Below, piece by piece: positions 16,390 through 62,200 of a stretch of DNA of 64,000 bases. The notes beneath the pieces were generated by a model. That model ran no database searches. It saw only the letters and a program-made list of their open reading frames with translations, and was not told where the DNA came from. Position 1 is the stretch's first letter, and every line of letters starts with the position of its first letter. Source of the DNA: an uncultured virus (IMG/VR IMGVR_UViG_3300020047_007813) (lineage: Duplodnaviria > Heunggongvirae > Uroviricota > Caudoviricetes). The position numbers and the translations under genes were made by a program. Location: the IMG/VR virus record IMGVR_UViG_3300020047_007813; one strand, 5' to 3'.

Positions 16390-17906
16390 GGTATTAATTT
16401 ATAAATGTGTGTCATATCTGTGTGGCCGTTACCGTGGATGATAACCGGCTCTGTGTTGGTTACTGCATTTTTAAAGATGTAATGCTCGTCATCATAATTA
16501 AAGTCATCATCATTTGCAAATGCTATACTTTGAAATACATCGCAATTTGTATCTAATGTAATAGCGCCATCTTCGTAGTGCTTCAAATACTGTTGCGTTG
16601 ACCATAACTGATCGTTCCAGTGGTCGTCCGTTAGCATGTCGGCTTCAACCATGGCTATGAAGTCATCAACCGGTGCAACCCAACCTCCACCATTCAAAAA
16701 TTTCCATGGCGACATCGTGTGTGGATATTGGTCTGCTAACTCGGGATGTGGGTAACATGCTTTTTCTGCCTGAAACATTATAGCATCCCAATTTTTTACT
16801 CTATAACAGATGTTTTGCATACCACTTAAAAAGAAGCTATCATAGCTATCAGCATAGACAAAATGCGTCAGCTTTAGTGGATTTTCTTTCAGGTAGCGAT
16901 ACGTTTCAAGTATCTTTCCTCCATAACCTTGCCAAGTATGATATATTATTTTGTACGGTATTTTAAACCGTTTCATGGACCGGACAAACTGTTTTAAACC
17001 AGGATGTGTTAGATCGGTAGCCGTAGTCACTACCATTATTTTGGCTATTTTACTTTCTCCGCTTTCTGATAAGTACTTCCACTTAGTCGGGTTAGCAAAT
17101 CTTGGGTCATAGTATATGTCCCTTTCGCCACTTAAATACTCATCCTTTATTTTCTGAAAATCTGCACCGCCTTTCTCTGCTTCCTTTTGTTTCCAATCGT
17201 AGTAACCATCACCACCGGGGTCAAGGTGTGTTATTTCTACCGATGGTAAAAACCCGCTGATAAATCCTGCCATGTGGCAACGGTAAGCTGCAAGGCTGTC
17301 GTCAAAGCCATATAGCCCTGGCTGATATAGGTAGCCTATTTTGTCAAGCAGTGCCGAGCTGAACATCTGACAAGTACCAATAACGTGGTGCACTTTCTCA
17401 AACGTTATCCACCTATGACCTCGCTCATGTGGAACAAACATTAGTTTTGACCGGAAGTTTGGGTCCTCGTGATCTGGGCACTCCCATAAGTCATTACGCT
17501 TTAGTCCAACGATGCCTATGGTTGGCATACGCTCAATAGCGTGTTCCATTAAGTCAACCCATCCTTGCTCGTGAATAACTACATCATTATCCATTTTTAT
17601 AGCATGCTCTCCTGGTCGTCTTGTTCGCCAAGCCTTATTTATAGCCTCGGCCGTACCTATATTTTCGGGCAAAGTAATTATTTCCGGCACGTATACCTCA
17701 TTTTTATTGGGGTACATATCAGCAAATAGTTCCATAAATGCCGTTAAAATTTGTTTCGTTGTTTCACAACTGTTGTTGTCAACGATTATTAACCGGTGCT
17801 TATTAAAGTCAACGGTGTCAAGCAGGGATTGAAGCGTGTCGTATGTAAACGCGCTTCTTTTATTTTCATCAGTGTCCCAGCAGCACATTGCGATTAAAGC
17901 GCACAT
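16386..17906 (-). CDS. two-domain glycosyltransferase: GT2 plus PLOD-type GT-A domain
   Basis: IIVDNNS, KMDNDV, YGFDD (GT2); then YADSYDSF, FQAEKACYP, FLNGGGW, NDQ, LDTNCDVFQ, IHGNG (PLOD GT-like). Confidence 0.75.
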   Translation of the reverse strand: MCALIAMCCWDTDENKRSAFTYDTLQSLLDTVDFNKHRLIIVDNNSCETTKQILTAFMELFADMYPNKNEVYVPEIITLPENIGTAEAINKAWRTRRPGEHAIKMDNDVVIHEQGWVDLMEHAIERMPTIGIVGLKRNDLWECPDHEDPNFRSKLMFVPHERGHRWITFEKVHHVIGTCQMFSSALLDKIGYLYQPGLYGFDDSLAAYRCHMAGFISGFLPSVEITHLDPGGDGYYDWKQKEAEKGGADFQKIKDEYLSGERDIYYDPRFANPTKWKYLSESGESKIAKIMVVTTATDLTHPGLKQFVRSMKRFKIPYKIIYHTWQGYGGKILETYRYLKENPLKLTHFVYADSYDSFFLSGMQNICYRVKNWDAIMFQAEKACYPHPELADQYPHTMSPWKFLNGGGWVAPVDDFIAMVEADMLTDDHWNDQLWSTQQYLKHYEDGAITLDTNCDVFQSIAFANDDDFNYDDEHYIFKNAVTNTEPVIIHGNGHTDMTHIYKLIP

Positions 17907-23202: not shown

Positions 23203-23436
23203 ATCTTTTTTCTACAATACCACATACACAAAAGCAGGTGCTGTTACCTCAATGATAAAACATGGGGTATCCTGCCTCTGTGTGTGGCATTTTCTTAAAT
23301 TGTTGTTTTTTGTGGAGTTTATCATTTTTGTGGGTAACAGCGATTGCAAACCAATAAATTAAATTTCATACTTCCTAATGTTTTTTTAATGAAAATTTAA
23401 CACCCCGCAAACCCAATGAAATCAAGCCTAAAAAAA

Positions 23437-23733
23437 GTTGAGGTGAATTCGAGGTGAATTTGAGGTAATTGTGAGGTAAGCGGTTTCAGTGGGTTTGAGG
23501 CATGTTTTGGCTAACTTCCGCATATACGTTGTGCGTTTTTTTTCTTCAAAAAAGTGCGTTTTCTCAATGATAGCAAGGCTTCGGCACATGTTGAGGTAAT
23601 CATTTTCCCATTACCTCCAATTCACCTCAACACCACTTTTTCTCTTTTTTACGTTAAACGCAATAACAACAAGGGTTACAGCTATTTTTAAATTACCTCC
23701 GATTTACCTCAAAATCACCTCCGATTTACTTCA
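23437..23733. repeat. inverted arrays of ~11-bp iterons (GAGGTRA core)
   Basis: 4 direct copies at 23437-23481, a mixed-orientation block at 23590-23631, 4 reverse copies at 23691-23733. Confidence 0.8.
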
Positions 23734-23745
23734 GCGAGATTTTAT

Positions 23746-23778
23746 ATTTATACCCCTATATATATAGGGGTAATAAAT
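23746..23778. repeat. palindrome TACCCCTATATATATAGGGGTA
   Basis: Perfect inverted repeat beside the iterons and an AT-rich stretch. Confidence 0.75.
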
Positions 23779-24266
23779 CTTAAAAAAAGAAATTCTGCCA
23801 GGTAGACCTATCAAAAATTTTTGAAAATATTTTTTGATCTGCTCGAGTTCTCTAATGGATAGATAAACGACACCCCATCCGGTTTCCGAATCGGACGCAA
23901 AACGCGGAACCCACCCCCCTACATCGTGTGCAGGTTGTCAATGGTCGGTGCTCCATGCAGGTGAAAGCCACCATTGAGGGCAAAGCAAGGCAATATAGCA
24001 GCGCATAGCGTGATATAGGCTATATTCGGGGGTGATAACTCGAAATGGCTGCGATATACAGATGCTAACCGTACCAATGTGCAGAATAATCCCGCTATTT
24101 CAGCTGTAATCCTTGCTACGGTGGGGTAGGAGGGAGGTTAAGCCCAACATATAGTCATGTGTTTTCGGGGCTATTTAACATAATAGTATTTATGGTAACG
24201 AAAATCGGGTCATTTTTTTTATTGGGAGATATATTCTACCTTCGGGCAAGCAAAACACCTCAAATA

Positions 24267-24698: not shown

Positions 24699-24937
24699 AA
24701 CAACCGACCCTCCGACATATACTTATCCCACAATTAGCCCAAAGTGGCTAAAATGTGCCTAAAAAAGCCAAATAAGGGCATAGTATTGATTTTATTGATA
24801 TTTCTGTCCATATAGCCAACTATATGGACGGCTATGTGTTAAACTTTTGTTAACGCTGCAATATTTCTTTTAGACTATGTAATATGTATTGTTTTTTTTA
24901 TTTGCTTTGTACCAAACAAGTCAAAAACACTATAAAA

Positions 24938-26062
24938 ATGACAAATTTAAAAATCCCAAATGAGTCTCAAACGCCCTATGAGTGGGCATTAGAGAACAAT
25001 TTACCCGAAGCAAAAGATGGTATGCTTTGGAAGGAGTGTTGCCAGGCAATTGGAGTAACACCACAAGGAACAGAGAGCCCTAAAATATGCATAGGCCGCA
25101 ACATTCGCGCGGCATTGCGTGACACTATGCCAAGCAGACAAGTAGCTGCAAAGATAGGCGGCAATGAGCCAAAAGTAACTACTGCAACAGCAGCGAGTCA
25201 AGAGTTGGCGCAAATGATGGCAGCGGCAATACAACCATTGCTTAACCTACAACAGCAGCAACCAATAGACCAGGCTGCGATAATCGAGTTGATAAAGCAA
25301 TATGCGCCAACCAAGCATATAGAAATCAATCTGAATGGCGCTATCAATACAGTTGAGGGCATAACGCACTATCAGTTTGAGCAATTGCTTAAAATAGTTA
25401 GTGCGGGCGTTAACATTATGTTGGTAGGCGCTGCGGGTAGCGGTAAGACTACATTAGTAGAGCAATGCGCGAAAGCATTGGGTCGCGAGTTCTACTGTAT
25501 GAGTGTAGGCAATCAGACAACAAAGTCAGATTTAATGGGTTACATGGATGCACAAGGGCGCTATGTGAAGACTATATTTAGGGATGCTTATGAGTTCGGG
25601 GGCGTTTTTTGCCTCGATGAAGTAGACGCGGGCAACGCGAATACAATCACATGCTTGAATAGCGCGCTGAGTAATGGAGTATGTGCATTTGGCGATGGCA
25701 TGGTAAAGAAACACGCGGACTTTCAATGTGTGGCAACAGCTAATACATTCGGAAGTGGTGCAAGTCGTAGCTACGTGGGACGTAACCAAATGGACGCTGC
25801 GAGTTTGGATAGGTTTGTAACGGTTGAGATTAAGTATGACGAGAATATGGAGCGTATTATAGCGGGTCATGACAGTTGGGTGGCAACCGTTCAGAAAGTA
25901 CGCAAGGCAATGGAGGGAGAGCGCATAGTTATAAGCCCTCGCGCTTCAATCATGGGCGCTAAGCTATTGAAAGCAGGACTAACACATAAAGAGGTGTTTG
26001 ACATGACTATATTGAAAGGGTGCAGTGAAGATATTAAAACTAAAATCAACGCAGCACTATGA
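24938..26062 (+). CDS. MoxR/CobS-like AAA+ ATPase
   Basis: GAAGSGKT, CLDEVD, VATANT, DAASLDRF, ISPR; ATG at 24938 follows an A-rich leader. Confidence 0.85.
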   Translation: MTNLKIPNESQTPYEWALENNLPEAKDGMLWKECCQAIGVTPQGTESPKICIGRNIRAALRDTMPSRQVAAKIGGNEPKVTTATAASQELAQMMAAAIQPLLNLQQQQPIDQAAIIELIKQYAPTKHIEINLNGAINTVEGITHYQFEQLLKIVSAGVNIMLVGAAGSGKTTLVEQCAKALGREFYCMSVGNQTTKSDLMGYMDAQGRYVKTIFRDAYEFGGVFCLDEVDAGNANTITCLNSALSNGVCAFGDGMVKKHADFQCVATANTFGSGASRSYVGRNQMDAASLDRFVTVEIKYDENMERIIAGHDSWVATVQKVRKAMEGERIVISPRASIMGAKLLKAGLTHKEVFDMTILKGCSEDIKTKINAAL

Positions 26063-26880
26063 AACACTTCAAAATAGTATTCGACAGCGTATCTGAGATA
26101 GCAGCGTATATTGAAAGCAACAGGGCAACGCATGACGTAAGCAAGAACGGTTACGGTTCGTCTTATGATAGGGATGAAAAATTTAGGGGTGGTAGTCATG
26201 ATGATTTGATTGATGGCTTACGCAATGGAGACATAAAAGCATTAGCCGAGTTTACAGCGGCTAATGTTAATGTGGAACTATCAACAATTGACAATATCAT
26301 GCACAGCGATGTGTCGGGGGCTTATGTTGACATGGGGGCATTCATAAACGGAGCGCCCGAATGTATGGTACAATTCAGCACTGAGGAGAGCAACAGATTT
26401 TGCGATATAGTTTGTAACATCAGTTATTCAGCGGACACAACGCATAAGCAAATGATGGCTAAATACATGTATATAGTCAAACTAATAGACTTGTTGGAGC
26501 GTAGTAATACCCGCTGCAAACTAACCATTATATGCTATTCTAAGGGTGCTAAGAAGAAAGGCAAAAAATGGACAGCTACAGATGATAGGTGCGACATAAC
26601 GGTACAATTAAAGCAATACAGCGAGGCTTTAAGTTTGGGGCATCTTCTATTTGTTTGCTGCAATCCATTGTTTTTAAGGGGTGCAGTAAACATAATACAG
26701 CACATAAATTTAGAGCAAATAGGATTTGTCTATGCGGGTTGCTGTACGGGTAATGATACGGTGCATCCCGCATGCGACATCTACGTTCCAAGCATGTACG
26801 CGGACACAAGAAAGTACTTAGGAACAGATGCAGATTTTAAGCAATGGGTATCGGGTATGCTACCTATGCTAAACAGTTAA
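26059..26880 (+). CDS. vWA-like partner of the MoxR ATPase
   Basis: Coupled by ATGA overlap; DVSGAYVDMGAFINGAPECM; degenerate MIDAS NISYS. Confidence 0.65.
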   Translation: MKHFKIVFDSVSEIAAYIESNRATHDVSKNGYGSSYDRDEKFRGGSHDDLIDGLRNGDIKALAEFTAANVNVELSTIDNIMHSDVSGAYVDMGAFINGAPECMVQFSTEESNRFCDIVCNISYSADTTHKQMMAKYMYIVKLIDLLERSNTRCKLTIICYSKGAKKKGKKWTATDDRCDITVQLKQYSEALSLGHLLFVCCNPLFLRGAVNIIQHINLEQIGFVYAGCCTGNDTVHPACDIYVPSMYADTRKYLGTDADFKQWVSGMLPMLNS

Positions 26881-35895: not shown

Positions 35896-35929
35896 CCCAA
35901 AAAATTAGTAATTCAATTTGCGTTTTGAC

Positions 35930-36181
35930 ATGAACTGGATAGAACAACGACCAAAAGAAGGGGACACCGTTAAGGTGTTTCTTTCTTTACCTGATGAAAT
36001 ATTGATTGGTGTTGCCTTGCGATACCATGATGGTAAAGTAATAATAGATAACGGGCTCCCGCTTGGGGAGCGTTCAGGAAGCGATTTTTATCGCGTTCCT
36101 GAATGTCCCCAAGCTGGTGTTGTGCGGCAGTCCGCCTTAGCGGCTGCCGTGCGACACCCGCGCAGCGGGAGCCCGTTGTAG
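35930..36181 (+). CDS. hypothetical ORF running into the first array site (possibly interrupted gene)
   Basis: MNWIEQRPKEGDTV...; from 36050 on it translates GC-rich hairpin DNA. Confidence 0.4.
   Translation: MNWIEQRPKEGDTVKVFLSLPDEILIGVALRYHDGKVIIDNGLPLGERSGSDFYRVPECPQAGVVRQSALAAAVRHPRSGSPL
36046..36181 (+). repeat. attC-like site 0 (GC-rich, branched)
   Basis: ATAAC-GGGCTCCCGCT...AGCGGGAGCCC-GTTGTAG enclosing two further hairpins. Confidence 0.6.
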
Positions 36182-36204
36182 TGCAAGACGCGAAGCGGAT
36201 TGCG

Positions 36205-36415
36205 CTACAACGTTACGAGGGTTGGCGAAGTTTTTATTTGCGGATTTGAAACACAAAACTAAATTATACAATGGAAAATAGACAGAAGATTTTAAGCGAT
36301 AAACACATACTTGGAAAGTTGAACGAGCATGGTTTGACGAATACTGTAATGGAGGCAATGACTGATTATGCACAGGAGCAAGCAAATAAAAATTTTGTCC
36401 AACCCTATGTTAGCA
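36205..36415 (+). repeat. attC-like site 1
   Basis: CTACAAC-gttacg-AGGGTTGGCGAAGTTTTTATTTGC...GCAAATAAAAATTTTGTCCAACCCT-at-GTTAGCA. Confidence 0.85.
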
Positions 36416-36567
36416 AATCGTTAGCCCCATATAGATGCCCAATATGCGGGGGCAATGGCTTGGTATCAGGTTCGTTTTATACATCGCTACTAGGATGTGG
36501 TGGCACAAGCGCTAATATAACTGAAAAGTGTAGAAGTTGCGATGGAAGTGGACTGTTATGGGGCTAA
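36271..36567 (+). CDS. cassette 1: DnaJ-type zinc-finger protein
   Basis: CPICGGNG...CRSCDGSG; starts inside the site 1 loop. Confidence 0.65.
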   Translation: MENRQKILSDKHILGKLNEHGLTNTVMEAMTDYAQEQANKNFVQPYVSKSLAPYRCPICGGNGLVSGSFYTSLLGCGGTSANITEKCRSCDGSGLLWG

Positions 36568-36571
36568 TGTT

Positions 36572-36702
36572 TGCTAACGAATGGTGCTTGCCGAAGGGCG
36601 GGTTTAGAATTACAAATGTTTAATTAAGTACTAATGTCAAATAGAATTACAGATGCTCAGGGCTTGCACGTTAGCCCGCCTTTTGGCAAACACGTGTTAA
36701 AT
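36572..36702 (+). repeat. attC-like site 2
   Basis: TGCTAAC-gaatg-GTGCTTGCCGAAGGGCGGGTT...AGCCCGCCTTTTGGCAAACAC-gt-GTTAAAT. Confidence 0.85.
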
Positions 36703-37083
36703 GATGGTTTTATTATAGACTTTTTTGAACTTATGTTTTTAGCCGAATCAGTTATTCCAGAAAGACCAATAGCACGTTCAATGTGTTTTGATGATTTTTC
36801 AGAAAGGCATTATCATAAAATGAATGATAATCAAAGAAAACAATTTTTTGAACACGTACAAAAGTGTCACGGTTTCAATTTAGAAAATGAGCAATGCAGA
36901 CACTTTTTTGCAAGATTTAACCCTAAAAATCAATACTTAGTTTCTTGTTTTTATAATGGGAAAGCCGAAGCTATTGTATGTTATATGTTTGATGAAGAAT
37001 ATAGGACTGAAAAAAACAGATTTGTCAATCGTGAATACATTAAAAGCGTTGTCAGGGTGTGGGATTCTCAAACTATCATTTAA
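36634..37083 (+). CDS. cassette 2: hypothetical protein (paralogue of cassette 3 ORF)
   Basis: IDFFELMFLAESVIPERPIARSM; its stop TAA is the TAAC core of site 3. Confidence 0.7.
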   Translation: MSNRITDAQGLHVSPPFGKHVLNDGFIIDFFELMFLAESVIPERPIARSMCFDDFSERHYHKMNDNQRKQFFEHVQKCHGFNLENEQCRHFFARFNPKNQYLVSCFYNGKAEAIVCYMFDEEYRTEKNRFVNREYIKSVVRVWDSQTII

Positions 37084-37154
37084 CGTTTTCGGGGTAACAG
37101 AAGGCGGCTATACAGTCGCAAACGTCAGCCGCTTTTTGTTACCCTGTGTTATAA
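37078..37154 (+). repeat. attC-like site 3 (short loop)
   Basis: ATTTAAC-gttttc-GGGGTAACAGAAGGCGGCT...AGCCGCTTTTTGTTACCCT-gt-GTTATAA. Confidence 0.85.
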
Positions 37155-37214
37155 GATGCCGCTTCCAGTAAGCATATTAGTAGTAGAATATTTTAATTAT
37201 TAAATTTTAAAGCG

Positions 37215-37592
37215 ATGGCAGAAATAAAAATAGATTTTTTTGAATTAGCATTTCTTGCTGAAACATGTATCCCTCCAACACCAATAGCGAGGTCAATGTT
37301 TTGGGATAGGCTTATAAACGAAATATACCACCAACTCAATGACAATGAAAGGAAAAGGTTATTTGAATGGATGAAACGAAATGATAGGTTTAAATTAGAA
37401 AATGAAGATTGTCAATGGTTCTATGCCAGATACAATCCAAATAACCAATATGAGGTAAGTTGCTTCTATAAGGGAAGTCCACAAGTTGTAAAAGCATTTA
37501 TGAAAGATGAATTGTATAGAACAAATAAGACAACACATATTTCTCCTGAATACATAAAATTTGCAACTAAAATTAAAATATCAAACAAATGA
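37215..37592 (+). CDS. cassette 3 ORF a: hypothetical protein (paralogue of cassette 2)
   Basis: IDFFELAFLAETCIPPTPIARSM, ARYNPNNQY. Confidence 0.7.
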   Translation: MAEIKIDFFELAFLAETCIPPTPIARSMFWDRLINEIYHQLNDNERKRLFEWMKRNDRFKLENEDCQWFYARYNPNNQYEVSCFYKGSPQVVKAFMKDELYRTNKTTHISPEYIKFATKIKISNK

Positions 37593-37843
37593 GGCACACA
37601 TCAGGCATTACAAAAATGAAAATGCTTATTAAGAAAAATAAGCGTGATGTTGAAAATGGAAGTAATGAAATTTACGAGTTCTTAATTAAATGGTGTGATA
37701 GGTTGATAAAAGAAGAAAAAGAATTTAAGAAAAAAGAGTGTTCTCATGACTTTGTTGAAACCGGATTGAGTGGGGAATATTTTTGTTATAAATGCAATAT
37801 CTATATGTCTGATTATTTTAAAAAGCGGGCAGTAAAAATTTAA
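37589..37843 (+). CDS. cassette 3 ORF b: small zinc-ribbon protein
   Basis: CSHDF...CYKC; ATGA-coupled to ORF a. Confidence 0.55.
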   Translation: MRHTSGITKMKMLIKKNKRDVENGSNEIYEFLIKWCDRLIKEEKEFKKKECSHDFVETGLSGEYFCYKCNIYMSDYFKKRAVKI

Positions 37844-37894
37844 TAATTAAAAAATAATGGTTAGTAGGATACATGATTGGAAACGTGCGGTTTC

Positions 37895-38019
37895 TTATAA
37901 CGTATCGGGTATTGGCGAAGTTGCCGAACCGAAAGTTTAATTGAAAAACAAAAGTTGAAATTATGGACGAAAGTTTAATTGAAAAACAGAACGGCAATTT
38001 TGCCAATACCTTGTTAGTG
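37895..38019 (+). repeat. attC-like site 4
   Basis: TTATAAC-gtatcg-GGTATTGGCGAAGTTGCCG...CGGCAATTTTGCCAATACC-tt-GTTAGTG. Confidence 0.85.
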
Positions 38020-38694
38020 GCAGTGCATTCTAAGCCGAAATGTTTGGATTTGTTCTGCTGTTCTGGCGGTGCAGGAGTTGGTTATAATCTTGCTGGGTTT
38101 GATGTAATTGGCGTGGATATAGAGCCACAACCTGAATACCCTTTTACATTCATACAGGGCGATGCACTTCAATATGTAAAGGAACACGGACACGAATTTG
38201 ATTTTATACACGCAAGCCCGCCCTGCCAACATTTTACCAAATACAATAATTGCCGTAAGGATTTGAAAGAACGCTATGAAGATTTGATTGAACCTACAAG
38301 GCAGGCGTTGATTGAAAGCGGAAAGCCTTATGTAATTGAAAATGTTGTTGGAGCTCCTTTACATAACCCGATTACATTATGTGGCTCTATGTTTGGACTT
38401 GATGTGCGTAGGCATAGATTATTTGAAAGCAACTTTGAAATACCACAACCCAAATGCGACCACAAAGTATGGGAACCAAATAGATTTCCAGGGGGCAGGT
38501 CAAGAGAGCGTGGACACGCCAGAGTATTATGCAGGGGAACAGTTGAAATTGGGAGGTGGAATATTCCGATTAAAACCCAGCAAGATGCAATGGGTATTCA
38601 ATGGATAACGGAATTACGAAAGTTGAGCGAAAGCATCCCGCCAGCTTTTACAAGATATATCGGTGAGCAGTGGGTGTCGCTGCATTGCCACTAA
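37963..38694 (+). CDS. cassette 4: C5 cytosine DNA methyltransferase
   Basis: LDLFCCSGG, ASPPCQ, IENV, RRHRLFE; its stop TAA is the core of site 5. Confidence 0.85.
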   Translation: MDESLIEKQNGNFANTLLVAVHSKPKCLDLFCCSGGAGVGYNLAGFDVIGVDIEPQPEYPFTFIQGDALQYVKEHGHEFDFIHASPPCQHFTKYNNCRKDLKERYEDLIEPTRQALIESGKPYVIENVVGAPLHNPITLCGSMFGLDVRRHRLFESNFEIPQPKCDHKVWEPNRFPGGRSRERGHARVLCRGTVEIGRWNIPIKTQQDAMGIQWITELRKLSESIPPAFTRYIGEQWVSLHCH

Positions 38695-38823
38695 CGTTCC
38701 CTCGCTTTGTGTCAGTGGCGGATTAAAAAATACTGACTTTTCGATTAATAACTAAACATACAAAAATGCAAGAAACATTAAATTTAGACCAAACCCCGCC
38801 ATTGCACAAAACGAGTGTTAGTG
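38689..38823 (+). repeat. attC-like site 5
   Basis: CACTAAC-gttcc-CTCGCTTTGTGTCAGTGGCGG...CCGCCATTGCACAAAACGAG-t-GTTAGTG. Confidence 0.85.
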
Positions 38824-39311
38824 GCAGTCCTTTATTCGATTACATTAAATGTCCCCTTCATAGATATACTTTTAAAGTAAAAAATATTCGTGAATGGACT
38901 GAAAATAATTGCGAGGGAAGAACTTTAAACCTATTTGCAGGAAGAACAAAACTAAATATTGACGAATTAAGAAATGACCTTGACGAAGAAGCATTGGCAG
39001 ATTATAGAATGGATGCAGTTGAATTTTTGAGGACTTGGAAAGGAGAAAAATTTGATACGGTATTACTTGACCCTCCGTATGCTTTTCGTAAAAGTATGGA
39101 AATGTACAAAGGGATAAAATGCAGTCCCTTTAAGCAAATGAAAGACGAAGTTGTAAATGTTTTAAAGCCAAATGGGAAAGTAATAACTTTTGGTTATCAT
39201 TCAAATACAATGGGAGCAAATAGAGGTTTTAAAGTTGAGAAGATTGCTTTATTTTCTCACGGTGGAGCAATTCACGATACAATAGCTTCTGTTGAACGGT
39301 GGTGTCTTTAG
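38766..39311 (+). CDS. cassette 5: small amino (N6A/N4C) DNA methyltransferase
   Basis: LNLFAG and LLDPPY motifs. Confidence 0.75.
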   Translation: MQETLNLDQTPPLHKTSVSGSPLFDYIKCPLHRYTFKVKNIREWTENNCEGRTLNLFAGRTKLNIDELRNDLDEEALADYRMDAVEFLRTWKGEKFDTVLLDPPYAFRKSMEMYKGIKCSPFKQMKDEVVNVLKPNGKVITFGYHSNTMGANRGFKVEKIALFSHGGAIHDTIASVERWCL

Positions 39312-39375
39312 GATTGCCACTAACTACTATATGTATTTTAAACCATAAAACTTAACAATAACAACTATTACAGAC
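39310..39375 (+). other. attI-like terminal site
   Basis: AGGATTGCCACTAAC core, complementary to the cassette 5 GTT core, followed by AT-rich DNA with no hairpin and then the recombinase ATG. Confidence 0.55.
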
Positions 39376-40212
39376 ATGAACATCGGAAACTACATCAAAC
39401 TTTATTCCGAAGATTTAAGGCTTAAAAACTATGCTGAATCTTCAATTGAAAACTATTGCTCACAAGTAGCTTTATTTTTATCTGACCATGAAAAAGTTGC
39501 TACTAAACCGAGTGAAATTTCGGAACGCCAAATAAAAGAGTGGCTACTTAAAGCAAATACTATTAATAGCCGGAAGCATAGATTATCAGCCGTTAAGTTA
39601 TTTTATAAACTCACAGGACACCAACCAATGAAGTTTAGATATATTGAATATCCAAAGGCGGATAAGAAGTTACCAATAGTACTTTCTGTTGATGAAATTC
39701 AACGAATGTTTAATGTGTGCGAAAACAAAAAGCATAAGGTGATTCTTGCATTGCTTTACTCTTGCTCGTTAAGAGTTAGCGAATTAATAAACCTACGATG
39801 GAAGGATATTGACCGGAGCCGAATGATTATAAATATTATCCAGGCAAAAGGAAATAAAGATCGTCAAGTTGGATTAAACGACAAACTGATCCAATTGCTA
39901 ACGGATTATTGGAATGAGTATAAATCAAAAGAGTATGTTTTGAATGGGCAATCATCAATTCAATATTCGGAAAGAAGTGTTGGTGAAGTTATGAAACAAT
40001 TAGCCGCAAAATCCGGCATTGAAAATAAAAGAATTTACACGCATTTATTGCGACACACATCAGCTACGCACATGGTTGAAAATGGTGTTGATATTGCTTT
40101 AATACAAAAGTTGTTAGGTCATTCATCAGCTAAGACCACTGCTATCTACACTCACATCAGCCACAATCATATTTCAAAAATCAATAGTCCTTTAAATTCT
40201 ATTCAATTATGA
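39376..40212 (+). CDS. tyrosine recombinase (XerD/IntI-like, N-terminal SAM-like domain)
   Basis: SLRVSE, AKGNKDR, HLLRH, LLGH, TTAIY catalytic motifs. Confidence 0.9.
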   Translation: MNIGNYIKLYSEDLRLKNYAESSIENYCSQVALFLSDHEKVATKPSEISERQIKEWLLKANTINSRKHRLSAVKLFYKLTGHQPMKFRYIEYPKADKKLPIVLSVDEIQRMFNVCENKKHKVILALLYSCSLRVSELINLRWKDIDRSRMIINIIQAKGNKDRQVGLNDKLIQLLTDYWNEYKSKEYVLNGQSSIQYSERSVGEVMKQLAAKSGIENKRIYTHLLRHTSATHMVENGVDIALIQKLLGHSSAKTTAIYTHISHNHISKINSPLNSIQL

Positions 40213-53244: not shown

Positions 53245-56200
53245 TTATTTTTTAATTGGATATAGTTCTTCTGATCGGTAAATTCTTTTTGATAACGCAT
53301 TGCTGTCAAGCTGATTTAAAATACCACCCATCATTACCGAGTGCAAGTGGTCAATAAATGCCGCAGTAACCTTTACACCGGTAGTGTTATATATAGCCTT
53401 GCTAATGTCCTCTGCTCCTTGTGTACCATACTTTAGCTTAACCTCCCAAGGCATAATGTTGTCATTGCCTGCGTAATAAGCCTTAGCAAGCCTCTCATTA
53501 GTCAATGGATAGCCATTGTAAGAGTTAATGCCTCGTAATTCCTCATATCCAAACTTCAATAAAGGATTGGTATTTGCTGCAATAGCATTGCCGAGCTTCA
53601 TTGACTTTTGAGCCAGGTCATCCCCCTCTTTATAATTAAGATTAAGATTGATAGGCGTGGCATTACTCATAGCCTGTACAGCCATGTTTTTAAATGCTTC
53701 GGGATTGTTCTTTTTAAGATAGTCAATGTAGTTAACCACCATTGTATTCGCTGTTGCAGGAAGCCCTCTCAATGGGAGCTTTACATAGTCATCATACTTT
53801 TCTCCATCGTAGTAAAACTGCGAGCCGGTTTTAAACAGTATGTTATTGTTTTTATCAGGATTATTAACGGTGTCAAATGACTTCTCGTCATCATCATTCC
53901 ACATGTTTTTTATAGCTGCATATAGCATAGGCAATAATGCATATACGCCTATTTTTAATATACCCATAGCCAATCCTGATGCAACTTTGTTTTTTCTTAT
54001 GCCCAGTGTGCCACCTTCAGTATTAGTAATTGTCCTCCAATCTGAAAACTCGCCTTTCACCCTTGCGCTGAAAAACTGAAACAGCCCTGACATGTACTTT
54101 GCCCAATTACCTGCCGCTGGAAAGTTGGGTGAGGCCGAACGATTTAAAGTATCAAAAGCAATTTCATCAAGTGCGGCTACTAACTCATCTCCGCTTTTTC
54201 CACTTAGCGCATTCAAGCGTAACACCGTTTCTTTTGCCCACTTCGTAAAGCCAACTCTATCAACGCCCTCTACGTCCATACCTCTAGTGTAAGTGTAAAT
54301 CTTAGGCATTTGTTCTAACGACACCCCTAGCCTTGGTACTGCAGTAAGTATGTATTTCAACATTGACATCGCCTGTTGTGGGGTAGTCATGTTTATTTTC
54401 TCCGTTATTTTATGATTTGGATCATTAAATATATCGTCAAATGCACCGCGAGTAAATGACTTTGATTTCATCCACTCCTCGTATTGCTTGGTCCTGATTC
54501 CGGTAAAGTTTGCTAATAAGCCACTACCCAAAGCCTCAATCATTTGTGGTAATAGTATAACTGCATTAATTGTTTTCTCGGCTATATCCTTGCCGGCTAT
54601 TGCACCATACTTGCTCATGGTCAAGCTTCTGAAATTGTCAATGACACTGTTGGCAAACAAAAATGACGGGCTGTAGGTAATGATACCAGCCCTCGCTACC
54701 TTATTCGCCAGGTTTATCAGCTTCATTACTCCATTCATCTCAAAGTCATTGATGCCGCGTAACGCTTTTGCTGCCTCCTCATTAACGGCTATAAACTTAG
54801 TCTTGCCGTCAATCTTATATTGGATAGGCGCAAATCCTTCCGGTGCCTTTATTTGGTCAATGTTTTTTGGGAACATGAACGGTTGCCCATTAGCATCATA
54901 GCGCAACTCAAAGCCCTCTACTTCTTTAAAGAAATGATTATCCTCGTCCACCTCTCGTAACTTATGGATGCGCTCCATCGTTTTGTTGCGCTCTCCCAAT
55001 ATCCTTGACTTGTAAATCATTTCAGCCATGCGGTCAAAGATGTTGTTTACCGCAAAGCCAGGATCAGCTAATTTAATACTCTCATTGGTGTATTGCTCCT
55101 CCGTTAAAGTGCCTGCGCTATACATGCCGTCAAGAAGCTCCTGTGCACCTCGGTAAAACTCATCCTGAGTAATTATCTTGTGGTCAACGCCTGCTTGTAG
55201 TTTATTCAAGTCGTTTAACGTGAAGTCAGCGGGCTTGCTACTGATACCTTTTATTTTGTGCAGTACAGTTGACTGTGCTTTGCCGTCTGCTTTTTTAGTA
55301 AGATTGGTAAAAATATTTTGCACCACGCTAAATGGAGCATAGAAATCTTTACTATCCATTACTGCATCCAGTGTTTCTTGCGAAATCAAACCGCCCTCAT
55401 ATAGCTCCAACATTATGCCGTCAGCATGCTTTTGGAATAACTCGCCTCTGTCAACTACCTTTTGATATTGTGATGGGCTTAACCGGTCTTGGATATTCTC
55501 TAATTGAGCAAGCGCCTGTTGAATGGTTACGTTACCGGTAGCTTTGATGTTGTCCTGATCCTTTAACCGGTCAATTACTCGTCTTGCAGCTATGTACTCA
55601 TGCAATGACTGCAGCTCTGTGTTAGACAATCCTTTTAATACCTCATCCACAAAGTCCTCCACTGCAAGTTTTGCCGGGCCTGTATAGCTTTGCTCAAATA
55701 CGCGGCCTAATGGCACCCGGCTCATGCGTTGTGCATTAGGGTATTTTTTAAGTACGTCATCCTCTAACCTGGTTACATACACAAATGGGTTATCAATGTG
55801 CTTGCTTAAATTCAAAAAGAAATCCTTAACCTTACCTGGGAGCGTTGATGGCTTGTCCTTTGGGTTAAGCATTTGGTTAAACATTTCCTGCGCTACTTTC
55901 TTTTCAGCATCGGATATAGGCTGATTGGGTAATGCAAAGGATGGTGTTTTGCCTATACGCAACATAGTGGCTCGCATACGTGCCTTAAATGTTTTTTCCT
56001 CTGCTAACGACATTACAGGACCGCCCGCTGCAGCAAGCTCATTCTTAGCATGTGCAAGCCCGTCCTGAATAGCTTTCTCAATCTCGGGCTTAGTGCGTGT
56101 ACCCGCTAATATAGCTTTCTTAGTAAAGTCCATTGTGCCGTTCCATATTGCAGGAAACAAATTGAATGGAGGCATGATGCCAAACAGCTTGTTCTTAATC

Positions 56201-59200
56201 TTTGCGTCATCAAATGCTTTGGCTATACGCTCTTTAGTGTATTTTTCCTTGGCCTTGTTCCATGCATCAACAATAAAGTCATGCGCCTTGTCACCAATAA
56301 CCTTTATGAAGTCAGATAATTTATTCATGCCTTTTTTAAGGTATAGGTAAGCAAGTTTGGTATATGCTGCAGCAAGTTTAACCCGCTTCTTGGTTACGAT
56401 ATTATTCATGCCCAATTCCCCCGCATCGCTATTGTCACCCTCTAAATCATCAATGTCTTTTTTTGCATCATTAATTTCGTCATCAATAGATTTGGCCTCG
56501 GCATCGTATCTGTAAAACTTAGAGCCTTCTTCGGCAGTATCTAAATCGTCATAAGATGTTATTTTTTGAACATCCCCGTTTTCAGAAATAGCATAAATCT
56601 CGTCATCCCAGCCTTCGTTAATTAAATCCATGACTTCGTTAACGCTTCTAATTCTTGTTCCGTCAGCTTCAATAACATCACTTGTTGGTAACGCTTTAGC
56701 TGATTCCGCTGCCATCTCAGATAATGTTTGGTCAATCTTCTTTTGAGTGGCGAGAGCTTCCTCATATTCTTTTGCTCTTGGAAATTCATCGGGCAATTCA
56801 GATAGGTACTTTTCCTTATCTGCTATATCTTTCTCATAAGCGCTTTTTTCGCGTTCATTTGCCAATAAATCGTCTGCAATACCTCTTATTTGACGGTGTG
56901 CAAATGATCCTAAATAAACGGGGTCATCACTTTTTATAGCGGCTTGCACACTTTTATTATTTGGGTTTACAACATATATGCTTGGAGTAAATTCATACCA
57001 AACGGCTTTGCCATTCGACTCAAATGTATAATCTGCCTGCATAACAATATCATACCCTGCAATATGTCCGACAATCTTATGTCCAGATGGCGCAAAACTT
57101 GTGCTTTCTATTGACTTTGTGCTTAAAATAGGGTGCGCCTTAATCATTTCTTTGATATAGTCGCTTTTTACCTGAAGCAATGCTTCTCCTGCAAGTTTGC
57201 GTTCTGTAAACTCCACTCCACCAATTACCTCTTTGAAATTCCACTCTCCTGTTTTTTCATTTTTGGTAGAGTTGCTTTCAAATAGTTTTATGTCTTCCTG
57301 ATTTCTTTTAATACGACTTTCAGTATAAGATAAACCTTGTTCAGACCGGGCTATTTTGTCTTGGACTGTATATTTTTCTTGTGAAAAGCCTTTTTCTGCC
57401 GCATCAAGCTCTTTTACTTTTTTGTCAATCTTAGCTTTTTCAAGCAGTACTGGATTACCGGATATTACTGCGGTCATGGTAGCAAACGAAACTCCGTTTT
57501 CTTCATCACCATCTCCTTCTGATATTTCCCTGACCTTGCCATCTGTTGTTTTCGCCTGGTCTATAAACTGCTGCTTGGTATCAAGTAATTGATATTTGTA
57601 AGCATCAAGCGTGTACTCTGTTGCATAGTAATAAACAGGTAGCTGATTATCGTAAAACTCCTCTGTTATTAAATTGCCTTGTCTTATACCACGTCCGTTA
57701 CGCTGCTCCATGTCCGAAGGTCGCCAAGGAACATCAATATGATGCATGGCAACTATCCTGTTTTGGATGTTTACCCCGGTGCCCAACTTAGATGTTGATC
57801 CGATTATCACCCTTACCTTACCTGACCTTGCATCATTAAACAGTTGTTCTTTTTTTGCAGCCGTATTATAATCATGTATAAATGCTATTTCATTTGCAGG
57901 AATACCACGTTTTACCAACTTGTCTTTTATAGACTGATAAATATTAAAGGTAGCTTCATTCGATTCTGTAATGGCATCGTCAATCTGCTCCTCGCTATAT
58001 TCAAGAATGGTAGCTATTCTTTTCCTAACATCTTTAATTGGTGGATATCTTGGCGTTTCTGAAAATGCAGCAGAGCCAAAAATGGTTTCCAAAGTATCGT
58101 TGTCAATACCTCTACTCTCCAACAAGTCAAACAGGTTTATAGATGGGTTAGCCGACTTAGGCGTACCAATGTCGCTAAACACCAATTGGATGCCCTTGTG
58201 CTTATCGCTTTCTTTGTAATGCTCCAGTATAGTATCTGCGGCTACCCCTAACTTACCAACCTCGCTATCTGCATAAGTTGGGTCAACTAATCGCATATCA
58301 ATAGCCATTTTGCTTGCTAAGTTTGTTGCAAGTAGCATGTAAGCCTTTTTTTGCTTGTCGGTCAATACACGACCAATGCGACTGCCATCTTTAGTTTTGG
58401 CAAACTCTTGTATTCTTTTTCCAAAACGTCTTTGCTCTTTTGTTGGGCTTACGTTAACAAGCAAGCCATTTACGCCTTCTGAATCGGTGTATGGTGTGCT
58501 TACATTTTCGTAATCAAAATTGCCGTTTTTTGCAGGTTGAATATCTTTGCCAACACTGCTTAAACTAAGCCAATGCTCATTTTTGCTCAATCCTTTCATG
58601 CCGCCTATAACCCGGTACTTATTGCCATCAATAAATATAGTTTCGTTTTTGGCAATAGGCTTTGATGTTTTTACTCTGAATGTTTTTTTAAACTCGGGGC
58701 GTGGCAGTTTTAAGTTTTTCTCATTACGAACATCTGCAATTTCTCTATACATGGTTGCCATTTCAGGAACATTCATAAAGTTGCGCATCCTTGTCTTTGG
58801 TTTCAATGAATTGGTTACACCAAATTCTATTTCAGAGCCTACGCTTGCAAATGTATTCGCCCAATTATCAAAAGAGTTTATTCCTAACTCTTTCATTTTA
58901 TTAGGACGCAAATATTTAAACAACAAATACATTTCTACCATTGTATTGCTGATAGGCGTTCCTGATGCAAATACAGTTCCTTTATCAGCACTATAAAACT
59001 TTTGCAATGTCCTTGCAGCAAATAATAAATTAAAGGCTTTTGTTGATCCTTTGGGGTCGCCTAATCCAGCTACGCCACGTTGGATAGTATTATAAGTAAG
59101 GTTTTTAAACTGTTGGCTTTCGTCAACAAACATGAAGTCAATCCCCATTTCCTCAAACGACTTTAGGCTATGGTCTTTTTTCATTAACGCTGCATTTTGC

Positions 59201-62200
59201 AGCTTAACAGCTAAATTAAGCTTTCTCGTTTCTAAACCATTTATCTCCCTTTTGCTTAAATCGTTATTTTTAGCAGCTAATATATCCTCCTCTAACGCAT
59301 CTATCTCTTGCTGTATAATCTCTTGCTGTATATCTGCTGACTGCTGAATCATTCCAAATTGGTCATGCGTCATAATAATAGCATCCCAATCATTATTAGC
59401 CATCTTAGCAAAAAACGCTTTTCTATTCTCCGGGCTAAAGTCTTTCTCTTTTGGAGACAACACTTTTGCCATTGGATAGGAATCCTTAAAAGTTCTTGCT
59501 AAGTCACTTGTGTTAGCTTTTAGGCCTAGTATAATCGGCTTTTTAATCATGCCCATTTGCTTCATTTTCATAGCAGCAACAACCATAATCAAAGATTTGC
59601 CCGACCCAACTATATGGTCAAGTATGCCATTCATTTGCTGAATTATCATCCAAACCCCATCCATTTGATGTGAACGAAGTTTATGCCCAATATATCCTGG
59701 GAAAGTCAAATGAGAACCGTCATTTTTAGGAACAATTGTTCCATTGAAATTGTCATTATAAAAATCAACTAATTCATTACGTCTTTTGTCATCTTTCCAA
59801 AGCCATTTATCAAATTCTCGTTTGATTTTATCTGCTTTCTCAATCGCTACTGCCGTTGCCGCTTCGTCAACAATTGTTGTCTTTCTTCCATCTTCGTCCT
59901 CAACCGTTCTTTTCACTAACGGAACCCTGTTTTGCATTACTTCTTCAAGCAAATCAAATCCATTCAATCTTGGAGTGCCGTAAGCATCTGTTACCTGTGT
60001 ATTGTGCGGGTCGCTGCCTGTTACATTAACACTACCTGTTGACAATCTTGTTATTTTAATGTCTTGTTGAAACAGTTTTGATGCAAAATCCATGTAATGC
60101 TTTACGTCAATCCAAGGCGCGCTTATTGGTGCATAGATTTGAGATGCATTTAAAGGAGCTGGCTGAACGGCCTCTAAAGCTGTTACGTTATCATTATAAA
60201 AAGGATCTTCCTTAGCAGCCAATATAGCCTCGTTCAGTTTTTGCCTTACATTTCCTGATAAATATTTCGTGTTATCCTCAAATCCTCCTTTTGGATTTTT
60301 AAAGATTACACCTTTGCCAAGTTTTATTGCTTCATCTTTTGAAACTCCTAACAGCTCTGCAATCCTATCAATATCTACACTACCTGTTTCATTAAGGTTT
60401 ATTGCTACTGCATCTGATACGTTTTCAGCAGCAGTAGCTCGCTTAGCTTTTTCAAAAACGCGCTTAGTAAAAATATCAGCAAGCCCTACAACCTTTTTGT
60501 CCTCAACATGCTCTAACGCCATCATGTTATGGCCATCTGAATCAAGCTCGAACAAAGTCTTGTTTTGCAAGATTGTTCCATGCGCTTTTACAAAGTCGTC
60601 ATAGGCTGTCTTTAGTAGCGCCTTGTAGTGCGTTATGGCTTCGTCAGTATAATCTCCCAGCTCTGATGCATACACACGGTTTAATGCGTTTCTAATCGCA
60701 ATCATGTCATGTATAGCTCCAGCGTATTTTTTAGGGATGCTGATTTTATTTACCTGCTTAATATCAAAATCTTCAACTCGCAATCCAATCTCAGCCAAGT
60801 TTGCGATATCATTTTCGGTTGCGTTGCCCTCTCTAACTCTATCGGGACTAACATTTACATCTCTTGCTTTTTGGTCAAGGTTTCCATCAATAGCTTGCTG
60901 GTCAGATATTACTCCAAATACACCCGGCTTAACCTCTACAACATTTCCATTGCGTTGTCCTTTGTTTTTAACATAGTGGTTTTCTATTTCCTTTTCGGAA
61001 TTGTTATTGCCAGAGTCAATTTTTTTATGGAAGATTTTTTCTGCCAAATCAGATATGCCTTTTTCAAGGTCTATGCCGGTAGATGTTACCGTCATTTGAT
61101 CTTCTGTCTGCAGGCCTCCTGCCTCAAATTTACCTAAAACCATTTCCGGGTTTTTGTGGAAATATTGATTATAGGTAATTTCATGCGTCTGCTGTTTTTT
61201 ATCCTTATGATTAACAGTAGCAGGCTTTGATTCAATAAACTTATTTGGCTGTGCAGGGGTTTCGTCTGTATCAAACTTTCTCAAAAATATAACATCGGTT
61301 ACTACCTCTGTGTTTGCATTACCTTTAAAGGTATTGTTTGGCAAGCGTATAGCCCCCATAAACTCTGCACTTTTGGCTATATGCTTTCTCAAATCCGCAT
61401 TGCTTGGCGAGTCTAATATACCAGCACTTGTTACAATTGCTATCAATCCTCCCGGCTTTACATCTTGAAGTGCTCTTGCAAAAAAGTAAGAGTGTATTTT
61501 AGATGTGGATTGCCTGATCGCCTGTATTTTGCTTTTTGCAAATTTAGGGTCATAAACAGAGTAAGTGCCAAAAGGGATATTCGATATAACCAAATCGGCT
61601 GCGCCTGGCGCAATACTTACCTTTTCATAACCGTCATTACGCGAAATAATGTTTGGGTATAACGCTCTTAGTATTTCTGCTGTAATATTATCTTTCTCAA
61701 TAGCTGCTGTTTTAGAGTTATTAATCATGTCAATAGGCATAGCCCCTATAAAATGACCTATCCCTGCACTTGGCTCTAATACCGCACCTCCTTTAAACCC
61801 TGCATGGCGCAACACGTTATAAATACCTCGTATTACAGGTATAGCGGTATAGTGTGCGTTTAATGTAGAGCTTTTTATAGCATCAATGTTTTCTTTGTAG
61901 TTTCTGGGGTCAAGCTCTTTTAGCAAATCATGCACTTGTCCAATGCGCTGTTTTAGCCCTGAATTTGATGCGCTCCAACCGTTATCTGAATTGGGGTCAA
62001 ACCCTATTTCTTTGATACCGCCCCAACCTACATACTTAAATAATTGGTCTTGCTCGTTTGGCGTAGCAATCCTGTTTTCGTTTTTAAGCGTTATTAATAT
62101 TTTTAACGCATTGATATTGTCATCCAACTTTTTAGAAACACTAAATGAAGTAGGTCCTGCATAGTTTGGAGGAATAACAAAGTTTCCATTGTGGCGTGTT

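Follow-up and report, generated by a model that had tools for sequence, protein, structure and literature searches.

A helix I2 insertion serves as the working definition of an integron integrase (IntI), and recombinases that lack it and lie beside attC sites have been dismissed as 'not IntI'; IntegronFinder requires a match to the intI_Cterm profile (accessible part of PMC4889954). A survey of tyrosine recombinases describes the same insertion as 'not fully conserved' within the integron-like subgroup (accessible part of PMC8138268). The locus described here raises the question of whether a tyrosine recombinase without the insertion, encoded next to an array of DNA hairpins in a 64,000-nucleotide viral sequence (the window, i.e. 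the whole stretch analysed), might nevertheless operate a cassette system. The original prediction, made from the sequence alone, was that this enzyme lacks the IntI-specific insertion and belongs to a separate Xer-like lineage that recognises hairpin sites by a different mechanism. The observation is confirmed by the present analysis and the interpretation is supported in part. As far as sequence comparison can indicate, the locus is quite probably a phage-borne, integron-like cassette-capture platform operated by a compact IntI relative that lacks helix I2.

The window represents a tailed phage, with PHROG matches for large terminase, portal, virion protein, DnaB-like helicase, RecT and exonuclease VIII, and the relatives of the recombinase suggest that its host would belong to the Bacteroidota. 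The recombinase gene is the last of a block of + strand genes that begins at ~35900.

Architecture and phylogeny of the recombinase

The catalytic residues R133, K158, H223, R226, H249 and Y258 are all present, and are invariant across 39 aligned proteins; the enzyme appears to be catalytically intact. About 40 residues had been noted between AKGNKDR and the helix preceding HLLRH, and an AlphaFold model (pLDDT 94), which contains no helix I2, gives a close value of 35 (AKGNKDR ends at R163 and the helix starts at residue 199); the reported absence of an LP.AL..KYP-type segment holds for the 278-aa protein. Measured from the end of KGxKxR to the H of HxLRH, the spacing is 59 residues in the phage recombinase vs 100-101 in IntI (18 of 20 rows parsed), with values of 53-64 in the wider recombinase family (94 of 99 rows parsed), 66 in XerD (four of five rows, one being mis-parsed) and 61-64 in XerC (6/6). 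Alignment resolves the difference from IntI into two deletions, one of ~31 aa that holds helix I2 and one of ~8-10 aa in the beta4-5 hairpin, and both the TIGR02249 profile and VchIntIA (2A3V) align in two stretches with the gap falling at the insertion. The best fold matches of the model are XerA 5HXY (Z 23.6, rmsd 14.8, 260 residues) and VchIntIA 2A3V (Z 21.6, rmsd 4.2, 267 residues), and the C-terminal SPL and the SAM_4 N-domain are common to the phage recombinase and IntI.

In VchIntIA the I2-region residues K209, Y210 and W219, together with W157, hold the extrahelical G20'' in trans, and T12'' is held in cis by P232, H240 and H241 of beta4-5 (accessible part of PMC3053210). The premise that helix I2 reads the extrahelical bases is thus correct for G20'' and incorrect for T12'', which beta4-5 reads. 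By alignment, P232, W219 and the rest of the I2-region contact set for G20'' have no counterpart in the phage recombinase, and H240/H241 align with Q196/Y197, of which Y197 is invariant in the 39 aligned proteins.

No curated cut-off is passed by the recombinase. The best NCBIfam match is XerA (NF040815, 199 bits against a cut-off of 220, passed by three of five relatives), and the scores against XerD (TIGR02225, 174.4/330), XerC (TIGR02224, 167.6/335) and IntI (TIGR02249, 166.3/265, the profile on which IntI1 as control scored 507.5) are lower. The expectation that IntI HMM screens would miss such proteins was therefore correct, and none of 121 Flavobacteriales genomes searched reaches the TIGR02249 cut-off; a scan of viral sequences for IntI returned two loci.

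The main tree comprised 51 proteins and 277 columns, including nine IntI (mostly Ignavibacteriota-type, plus IntI1, one cyanobacterial and one viral) and no archaeal XerA. IntI is monophyletic in this tree (100/100) with the phage recombinase outside it, in a phage-only clade (100/100) inside a larger family (93/92), and IntI, this family and some other SAM_4 recombinases are together separated from XerC/D (99/89). An AU test rejected a topology in which the phage clade was forced together with IntI1 (p-AU 1.7e-9), so that membership of bona fide IntI, one of the findings that would have told against the original prediction, is rejected. In a quick tree of 41 rows the family was not one clade, and IntI fell inside its radiation with weak support. 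The proposal of a separate Xer-like lineage accordingly holds as regards separation from IntI and is not borne out as regards 'Xer-like', the main tree favouring the IntI side, although a grouping with XerC/D was not rejected (p-AU 0.094). On these comparisons the recombinase is neither IntI nor, by score, XerC/D, and is probably nearer to IntI.

Three observations concern other members of the family. One Ignavibacteriota-type genome (G005; loci L107, L127 and L132) carries a true IntI gene, with a stop, plus members of the phage-recombinase family. TpnF, the product of the recombinase gene beside tet(X3) (L022 5986-6651, plasmid pHH1107; Acinetobacter plasmids), is a 43% identical relative that aligns only to residues 62-274, and no hairpin sites were found in its locus, L022. 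A search for HARP in five long bacterial forms of the recombinase gave no Pfam match at E 0.05.

The hairpin array and its attI-like site

The + strand carries six AAC...GTT hairpins (S0-S5, 36050-38819) and, at 39322, a seventh AAC without a hairpin (Table 1). A cassette begins with the C of one AAC, ends with the AA of the following one and has its hairpin at the head, and the cargo genes face the recombinase. A hairpin scanner (score >=16) gave six hits in the 64 kb, all on the + strand within 36050-38819 (one being a partial fold of S0) and none on the - strand, vs two hits in 2,004,832 bases of shuffled sequence. Both irregularities of the arms noted beforehand were found: the spacer of S1-S5 is asymmetric, with 5-6 nt after AAC vs 1-2 nt before GTT, and the bulges are inconsistent, with one on the 3' arm in S1, one on the 5' arm in S5 and none in S2-S4. 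A covariance model built exclusively from 42 bacterial sites recovered S5, S4, S2 and S3 and nothing else in the window, missing S1 and S0, and had no match in a class 1 integron or in 11 XerC/XerD loci. Rfam covariance models gave no match in the window; Rfam Flavo-1 was considered as the identity of the sites and rejected, since the single Flavo-1 hit in nine loci is not one of them.

Table 1. Features of the array and recombinase locus (positions in the window)
Feature	Position	Strand	Remarks
c0, far array end: atypical site S0 (36050-36177) and 34-nt self-complementary body	36050-36210	+	no bulge; branched; z ~ -12 on both strands
S1, long loop, head of c1 (36211-36577)	36209-36411	+	missed by covariance model
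c1 cargo: 98-aa ORF, DnaJ-type CxxCxGxG motifs	36271-36567	+	weak DnaJ matches (E 1e-3), far under cut-off; first ATG within S1
S2, head of c2 (36578-37083)	36576-36698	+	covariance model E 1e-12
c2 cargo: 149-aa ORF, no family match	36634-37083	+	first ATG within S2; body end to end in other phages
S3, head of c3 (37084-37900)	37082-37150	+	covariance model E 5e-6
c3 cargo: two ORFs (125 aa and 84 aa), no family match	37215-37843	+	
S4, head of c4 (37901-38694)	37899-38015	+	covariance model E 6e-15
c4 cargo: C5-type DNA methyltransferase, 243 aa	37963-38694	+	phrog_363 E 5e-41; PF00145 under cut-off; first ATG within S4
S5, head of c5 (38695-39323)	38693-38819	+	covariance model E 4e-18
c5 cargo: DNA methyltransferase, 181 aa	38766-39311	+	phrog_11619 E 8e-42; first ATG in S5 loop
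attI-like site: AAC 39322-39324 then TACTATATGTA, no hairpin	39310-39340	+	54 nt before recombinase start
Tyrosine recombinase, 278 aa	39376-40212	+	Phage_int_SAM_4 and Phage_integrase domains; without IntI insertion

At 6/6 junctions in the window the sequence following each GTT is complementary to that preceding the next AAC (7-10 nt, perfect), as expected if each circular cassette closes a full stem. The same holds across loci, where complementarity of >=6 of 7 nt was found in 51 of 73 next-site pairs vs 8 of 131 own-site pairs. That the far end of the array has a hairpin and the end nearest the recombinase only a bare AAC assigns each hairpin to the gene on its right and points to a crossover at AA|C, i.e. 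probably at 39323/39324 in the attI-like site; it also equates the + strand with the attC bottom strand, and places the recombinase gene as in a classical intI arrangement.

A pattern search places the terminal AAC 54-55 nt ahead of the recombinase start codon in 12 of 18 distinct viral loci; inspection by eye adds five more, and the contig of the remaining one is too short (three further loci, L003, L008 and L009, were dropped as duplicates). In all eight viral loci where both were called, the left flank of the attI-like site matches the nearest cassette, which implies that cassettes enter at this site.

Some features of individual cassettes may be added. The c0 region has no ORF, has a GC content of 0.63, forms a branched palindrome and is present in a public contig (36049-36230); in the cultured Polaribacter phage Leef_1 an atypical farthest site is likewise followed by palindromes (L023 2247-2370). 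An 87-aa ORF (35918-36181) reads across S0, and its 3' end was probably altered by the entry of c0, which would put the left half of the original attI at ~36040-36051. The c2 protein and the first c3 protein (37215-37592) are paralogues (51% identical) of a family that occurs in 11 viral loci and has no Pfam, PHROG or PADLOC match. No immunity families were identified among the window cargo; the two methyltransferases probably protect the phage against restriction by its host. Searches of GenBank phages with S5 and S0 gave no match, and the last cassette of L013 shares the ends of c1 and has a different body.

Sites, cargo and cassette movement in related loci

The survey of DNA around homologues that had been suggested as a check was carried out, and AAC-hairpin-GTT arrays are present. 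In the 18 viral loci (score >=16) there are 42 sites upstream on the same strand in 78 kb, a density to be set against the shuffled control above, with one site upstream on the opposite strand and three downstream; of the 12 loci with >=2 kb upstream, nine have a site and three have none. Bacterial loci were those of the best 80 of at least 592 confirmed relatives, i.e. 24 short and 56 long forms. Within this set the short forms have 23 sites upstream and ten downstream on the opposite strand (a site in 11 and none in nine of the 20 loci with >=2 kb of upstream sequence), and the long forms have 47 sites downstream on the opposite strand in 169 kb and six elsewhere, with a site in 20 of 27 loci. 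Sites were found beside XerC/XerD in 0 of 11 loci, for which flanks of 1.5 kb only were available, and in two of 12 other recombinase loci; the hosts carry separate XerC and XerD genes with no hairpin sites nearby.

In 25/25 phage cassettes the bulge strand carries the longest ORF, and in 28/30 bacterial cassettes the other strand carries it (two being without an ORF), i.e. phage cargo is inverted relative to bacterial cassettes with the same type of site. This bears on a rival account in which the phage gene serves chiefly as an integrase or resolvase of the phage, with the attI-like site as its attP, cassettes being moved by a chromosomal family member of the host or picked up on integration into, or exit from, a host array. 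The PHROG annotation of the gene as integrase, the common occurrence of chromosomal homologues in Bacteroidota, the existence of a phage (P12002L, below) that has sites without a recombinase, and the spacing of the attI-like site, which we take to be dif-like, would all suit such an account. We nonetheless consider it improbable, given that the cassette beside the site matches the left flank in each of the eight viral loci noted above, that the 54-nt spacing between gene and site is kept in the phage-only clade (100/100), and that simple pick-up from a host array would not give the observed inversion (25/25 viral vs 0/28 bacterial cassettes).

Leef_1 shows the layout of the window, five sites preceding the gene of a 34% identical recombinase, and since this phage is in culture the phage version of the system is testable. 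A Flagellimonas plasmid carries the full-length enzyme, two sites and erm(F). In L004 (5136-5633) a second short array is formed by sites that lie on the recombinase strand, downstream of the gene. L184 combines five sites with a distant (28%) recombinase, and in the Polaribacter phages Freya_1-10 the coordinate of a 30% identical integrase increases along with genome length, from 44.0 to 48.9 kb.

Site anatomy was compared over 140 distinct sites (77 bacterial, 46 viral, 12 from named records and five from the window), 128 of them with ungapped arms. A G opposite a T directly after AAC is found in 125/140 sites and, amongst those with ungapped arms and counting the index from the last T, a 3-4 nt bulge on the AAC arm in 119/128, a T-A pair at -9 in 112/128 and a G·T wobble at -17 in 98/128, the wobble being present in all five window sites (shifted by an extra base in S1). 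A bulged base within 16 bp occurs in 29/140 sites, at scattered positions, and in none of the 140 at -11, the position of G20''. Because the scanner rewards pairing, pairing rates are circular; it scores G·T below Watson-Crick pairs, however, and would pass a bulge at -11. A C·A mismatch at index -8 was rejected as a recognition mark, being present in only 32/128 sites. The aadA7 attC bottom strand has an extrahelical G at -11 and an extrahelical T at -18, equivalent to -17 if the G is omitted (accessible part of PMC9892861). The present sites thus lack the base that I2 reads, and have a weakly paired T where beta4-5 reads one. A scan for classical attC geometry picked up the two class 1 attC sites in L159; S1-S5 were all missed.

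These data also bear on whether the sites might be recombined as ordinary double-stranded DNA, in the manner of Xer or Cre, with the palindromes incidental or functional in RNA. The enzyme itself could be read in this way, inasmuch as it has no insertion tied to single-strand recognition, is shorter in this region than XerC/D, and finds its best profile and fold matches in XerA. As duplexes, however, the sites share little except AAC and GTT 70-200 nt apart, whereas their arms stay paired even though the base pairs differ, and in 125/140 sites the bulge strand is the better folder of the two; we regard recombination of the duplex as the least probable of the alternatives considered, and scarcely credible.

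Evidence of cassette movement came from public contigs of four runs from four studies and from IMG/VR loci. Public contigs change partner at AAC: c3 occurs whole, as a single piece (37081-37903), c4 is joined to S2 (38689 to 36576), c5 continues into a hairpin after 39324, different cassettes precede 38691-38692, and homology to the attI-like site and recombinase begins at 39321, behind other DNA. None of the public sequencing runs contained half of the array's words, and all were DNA rather than RNA runs. In IMG/VR, bodies are matched from GTT to AAC for c2 in 5/11 loci, for c5 in 1/33 and for c4 in L165, and one cassette that is mid-array in L017 adjoins attI in L014. Two findings run counter to the simplest form of our reading. 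Bodies occur with different hairpins (c2 in 5/11 loci; c5 in L161; L017/L014), which tells against a strict AA|C crossover, and 12 of the 27 loci with the c5 methyltransferase have no site within 3 kb, which tells against a platform. Exchange on the GTT side, or RecE/RecT activity between arms, may add to the shuffling, and the inverted repeats around each body would allow its inversion, a possible origin of the phage orientation.

The shuffling may alternatively be ascribed to homologous recombination, the hairpins then being repeated expression units (translation starts, terminators) shuffled by the phage RecE/RecT as in the hyperplastic regions of T4-type phages. RecT and exonuclease VIII genes do lie 0.4-2.6 kb from the array, the first ATG falls inside the site in four of the five window sites and 8/25 viral cassettes, and hairpins are exchanged between bodies. 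Break points nevertheless fall on the AAC/GTT triplets rather than at random within the repeats, complementary cassette ends and a terminal site without a hairpin call for site-specific recombination, the same sites occur in bacteria with the opposite gene orientation, and promoter-like sequences are not in excess (18 sites vs 17.0 expected in a sigma-70 scan, the model being one not suited to Bacteroidota). Taken together, these make expression units shuffled by homologous recombination very improbable as an explanation of the array, although such recombination may still underlie the hairpin exchanges.

Related bacteria have sites of the same type, which bound resistance genes. In Riemerella anatipestifer a gene together with 27 bp upstream and 140 bp downstream is reported to integrate without homology, by a route described as unexplained and, in the accessible part of the report, without a named recombinase (PMC13148043). 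On plasmid pRCAD0416RA-1 the two ends of this unit map to two such sites, at an identical point within the GTT of each (16529-16531 and 17485-17487), with the caveat that the donor in that experiment was another strain than the source of pRCAD0416RA-1, said in the accessible text to share the same 140 bp. The site type therefore offers a concrete mechanism for this integration, and a surveillance marker. The plasmid carries 12-13 sites bounding tet(X), blaOXA, lnu(I), estT and aph(3')-IVb, and no recombinase. Riemerella plasmids L208 and L209 have 8-13 sites around tet(X), blaOXA, estT, lnu(I), erm(F) and aadS, and one site type is also found on Bacteroides, Sphingobacterium, Myroides, Salmonella and Acinetobacter plasmids (13 records).

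Proposed mechanism and relation to known systems

In the mechanism that we propose for the integron-like platform, single-stranded DNA of the + strand, the counterpart of the attC bottom strand, would fold at each site, and the enzyme would cut at AA|C and perform one strand exchange, either with the double-stranded attI-like site (insertion) or with another hairpin (excision), the resulting junction being resolved by replication. Choice of strand, and the block on a second exchange, would rest on the 3-4 nt bulge of the cut strand and on the G·T wobbles, which become A·C mismatches on the other strand, rather than on an extrahelical G. Phage transcription towards the recombinase would express the inverted cargo. 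We further speculate, with some doubt, that the wobble T at -17 may flip onto the invariant Y197. The prediction of a different mechanism needs correction, core geometry, crossover triplet and the position of the conserved T all matching attC; recognition is probably a simpler version of the attC mechanism. Were the enzyme to recombine hairpin sites, single-strand cassette recombination would be possible without I2, and a large set of integron-like platforms, with at least 592 relatives of the recombinase, would be escaping current screens, such as that of the 121 Flavobacteriales genomes above.

By the definitions of IntI and attC the window system is not an integron, yet it appears integron-like on every feature that can be tested on sequence. 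It shares with integrons the recombinase, adjacent attI-like site, cassette array, AAC/GTT core and complementary cassette ends, and with attC (aadA7, from the accessible part of the source cited above) a conserved A at index -9 and a T at the helical position of T12''. It differs in an enzyme that lacks helix I2, has a shortened beta4-5 hairpin and lies outside the IntI clade, in sites where a 3-4 nt asymmetric bulge replaces the near-symmetric unpaired spacer and the extrahelical G is missing, and in phage cargo that is inverted to face the recombinase. With XerC/XerD and archaeal XerA the enzyme has in common a simple two-domain tyrosine recombinase architecture; unlike XerC/XerD-dif, it is associated with an array of sites rather than a single dif, and it scores under the XerC, XerD and XerA cut-offs. 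A literature search, in which few subscription journals were represented, found no paper defining the window's system.

The closest described system is rAID-1 of Bacteroidales, so that a branch of the recombinase family is already in print. In the accessible part of that account (Ross et al., bioRxiv 10.1101/471110) a recombinase annotated as XerD-family lies beside an array whose repeats are 'reminiscent of integrons', membership requiring >44% identity to BF9343_RS08045 and >=2 co-directional downstream genes, rich in immunity genes. Clusters L210 and L211 fit this description: their recombinases belong to the present family (59-residue spacing, position inside the family in the tree), and a scan found three and five compact AAT-core hairpins, short and asymmetric, on the matching strand. 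The phage recombinase is 35-36% identical to these two, and a T at -17 is present in only 3/8 rAID-1 repeats, which counts against the wobble-T reading. As described in the accessible text, rAID-1 is chromosomal or plasmid-borne, with a 367-aa enzyme upstream of co-oriented immunity genes and repeats of ~40-46 nt with AAT in place of AAC, whereas the window has a phage-borne 278-aa enzyme, an array upstream of it, inverted cargo and methyltransferases; downstream co-directional immunity genes are not what the window contains. That text gives no crossover, hairpin geometry or missing I2 (10.1101/471110).

Phage attC clusters without an integrase (CALINs) were described by Qi et al. 2023, who tested six phage sites with IntI1, of which, in the accessible part of the paper, only P12002L_attC1 failed (PMC9892861). 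This site has the geometry of the window sites and lies between two methyltransferase genes of Polaribacter phage P12002L, which carries nine such sites on one strand and no recombinase match. P12002L attC2, which IntI1 did recombine, was cloned from the opposite strand according to the accessible text, and its geometry class is not assignable here (PMC9892861). Methyltransferase cassettes in a phage of Bacteroidota are thus common to the P12002L CALIN and the window, and unlike P12002L the window has its own recombinase and attI-like site.

A wider reading, put forward only tentatively, is of a second, phylum-wide class of integron in Bacteroidota and their phages, in which I2-free single-strand recombination works through a bulge and a flippable wobble T. 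This class could preserve the state before IntI gained I2 and attC its extrahelical G, and could be the route by which Flavobacteriales arrays of tet(X), erm(F) and blaOXA arose, the phages having taken it up, with their cargo inverted, as a counter-defence shuffler.

Elsewhere in the window, an intergenic stretch upstream of the DnaB-like gene contains an inverted repeat (23398-23507, -) and several short repeats (23400-23800) near the minimum of cumulative GC skew, and the repeat stretch at 23398-23800 is a candidate replication origin. The inverted repeat matched in a first loose scan for hairpin sites, was lost in the final scanner and was discarded as a site. By eye, an AAA-type ATPase ORF (392 aa) is followed by a 273-aa partner (24884-26880, +), a pairing that we assume to correspond to that of MoxR/VWA modules. 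A 3576-aa ORF amid the virion genes (53245-63975, -) shows by eye methyltransferase-like and helicase-like motifs in its translation; it is presumably DarB-like and possibly an injected anti-restriction protein.
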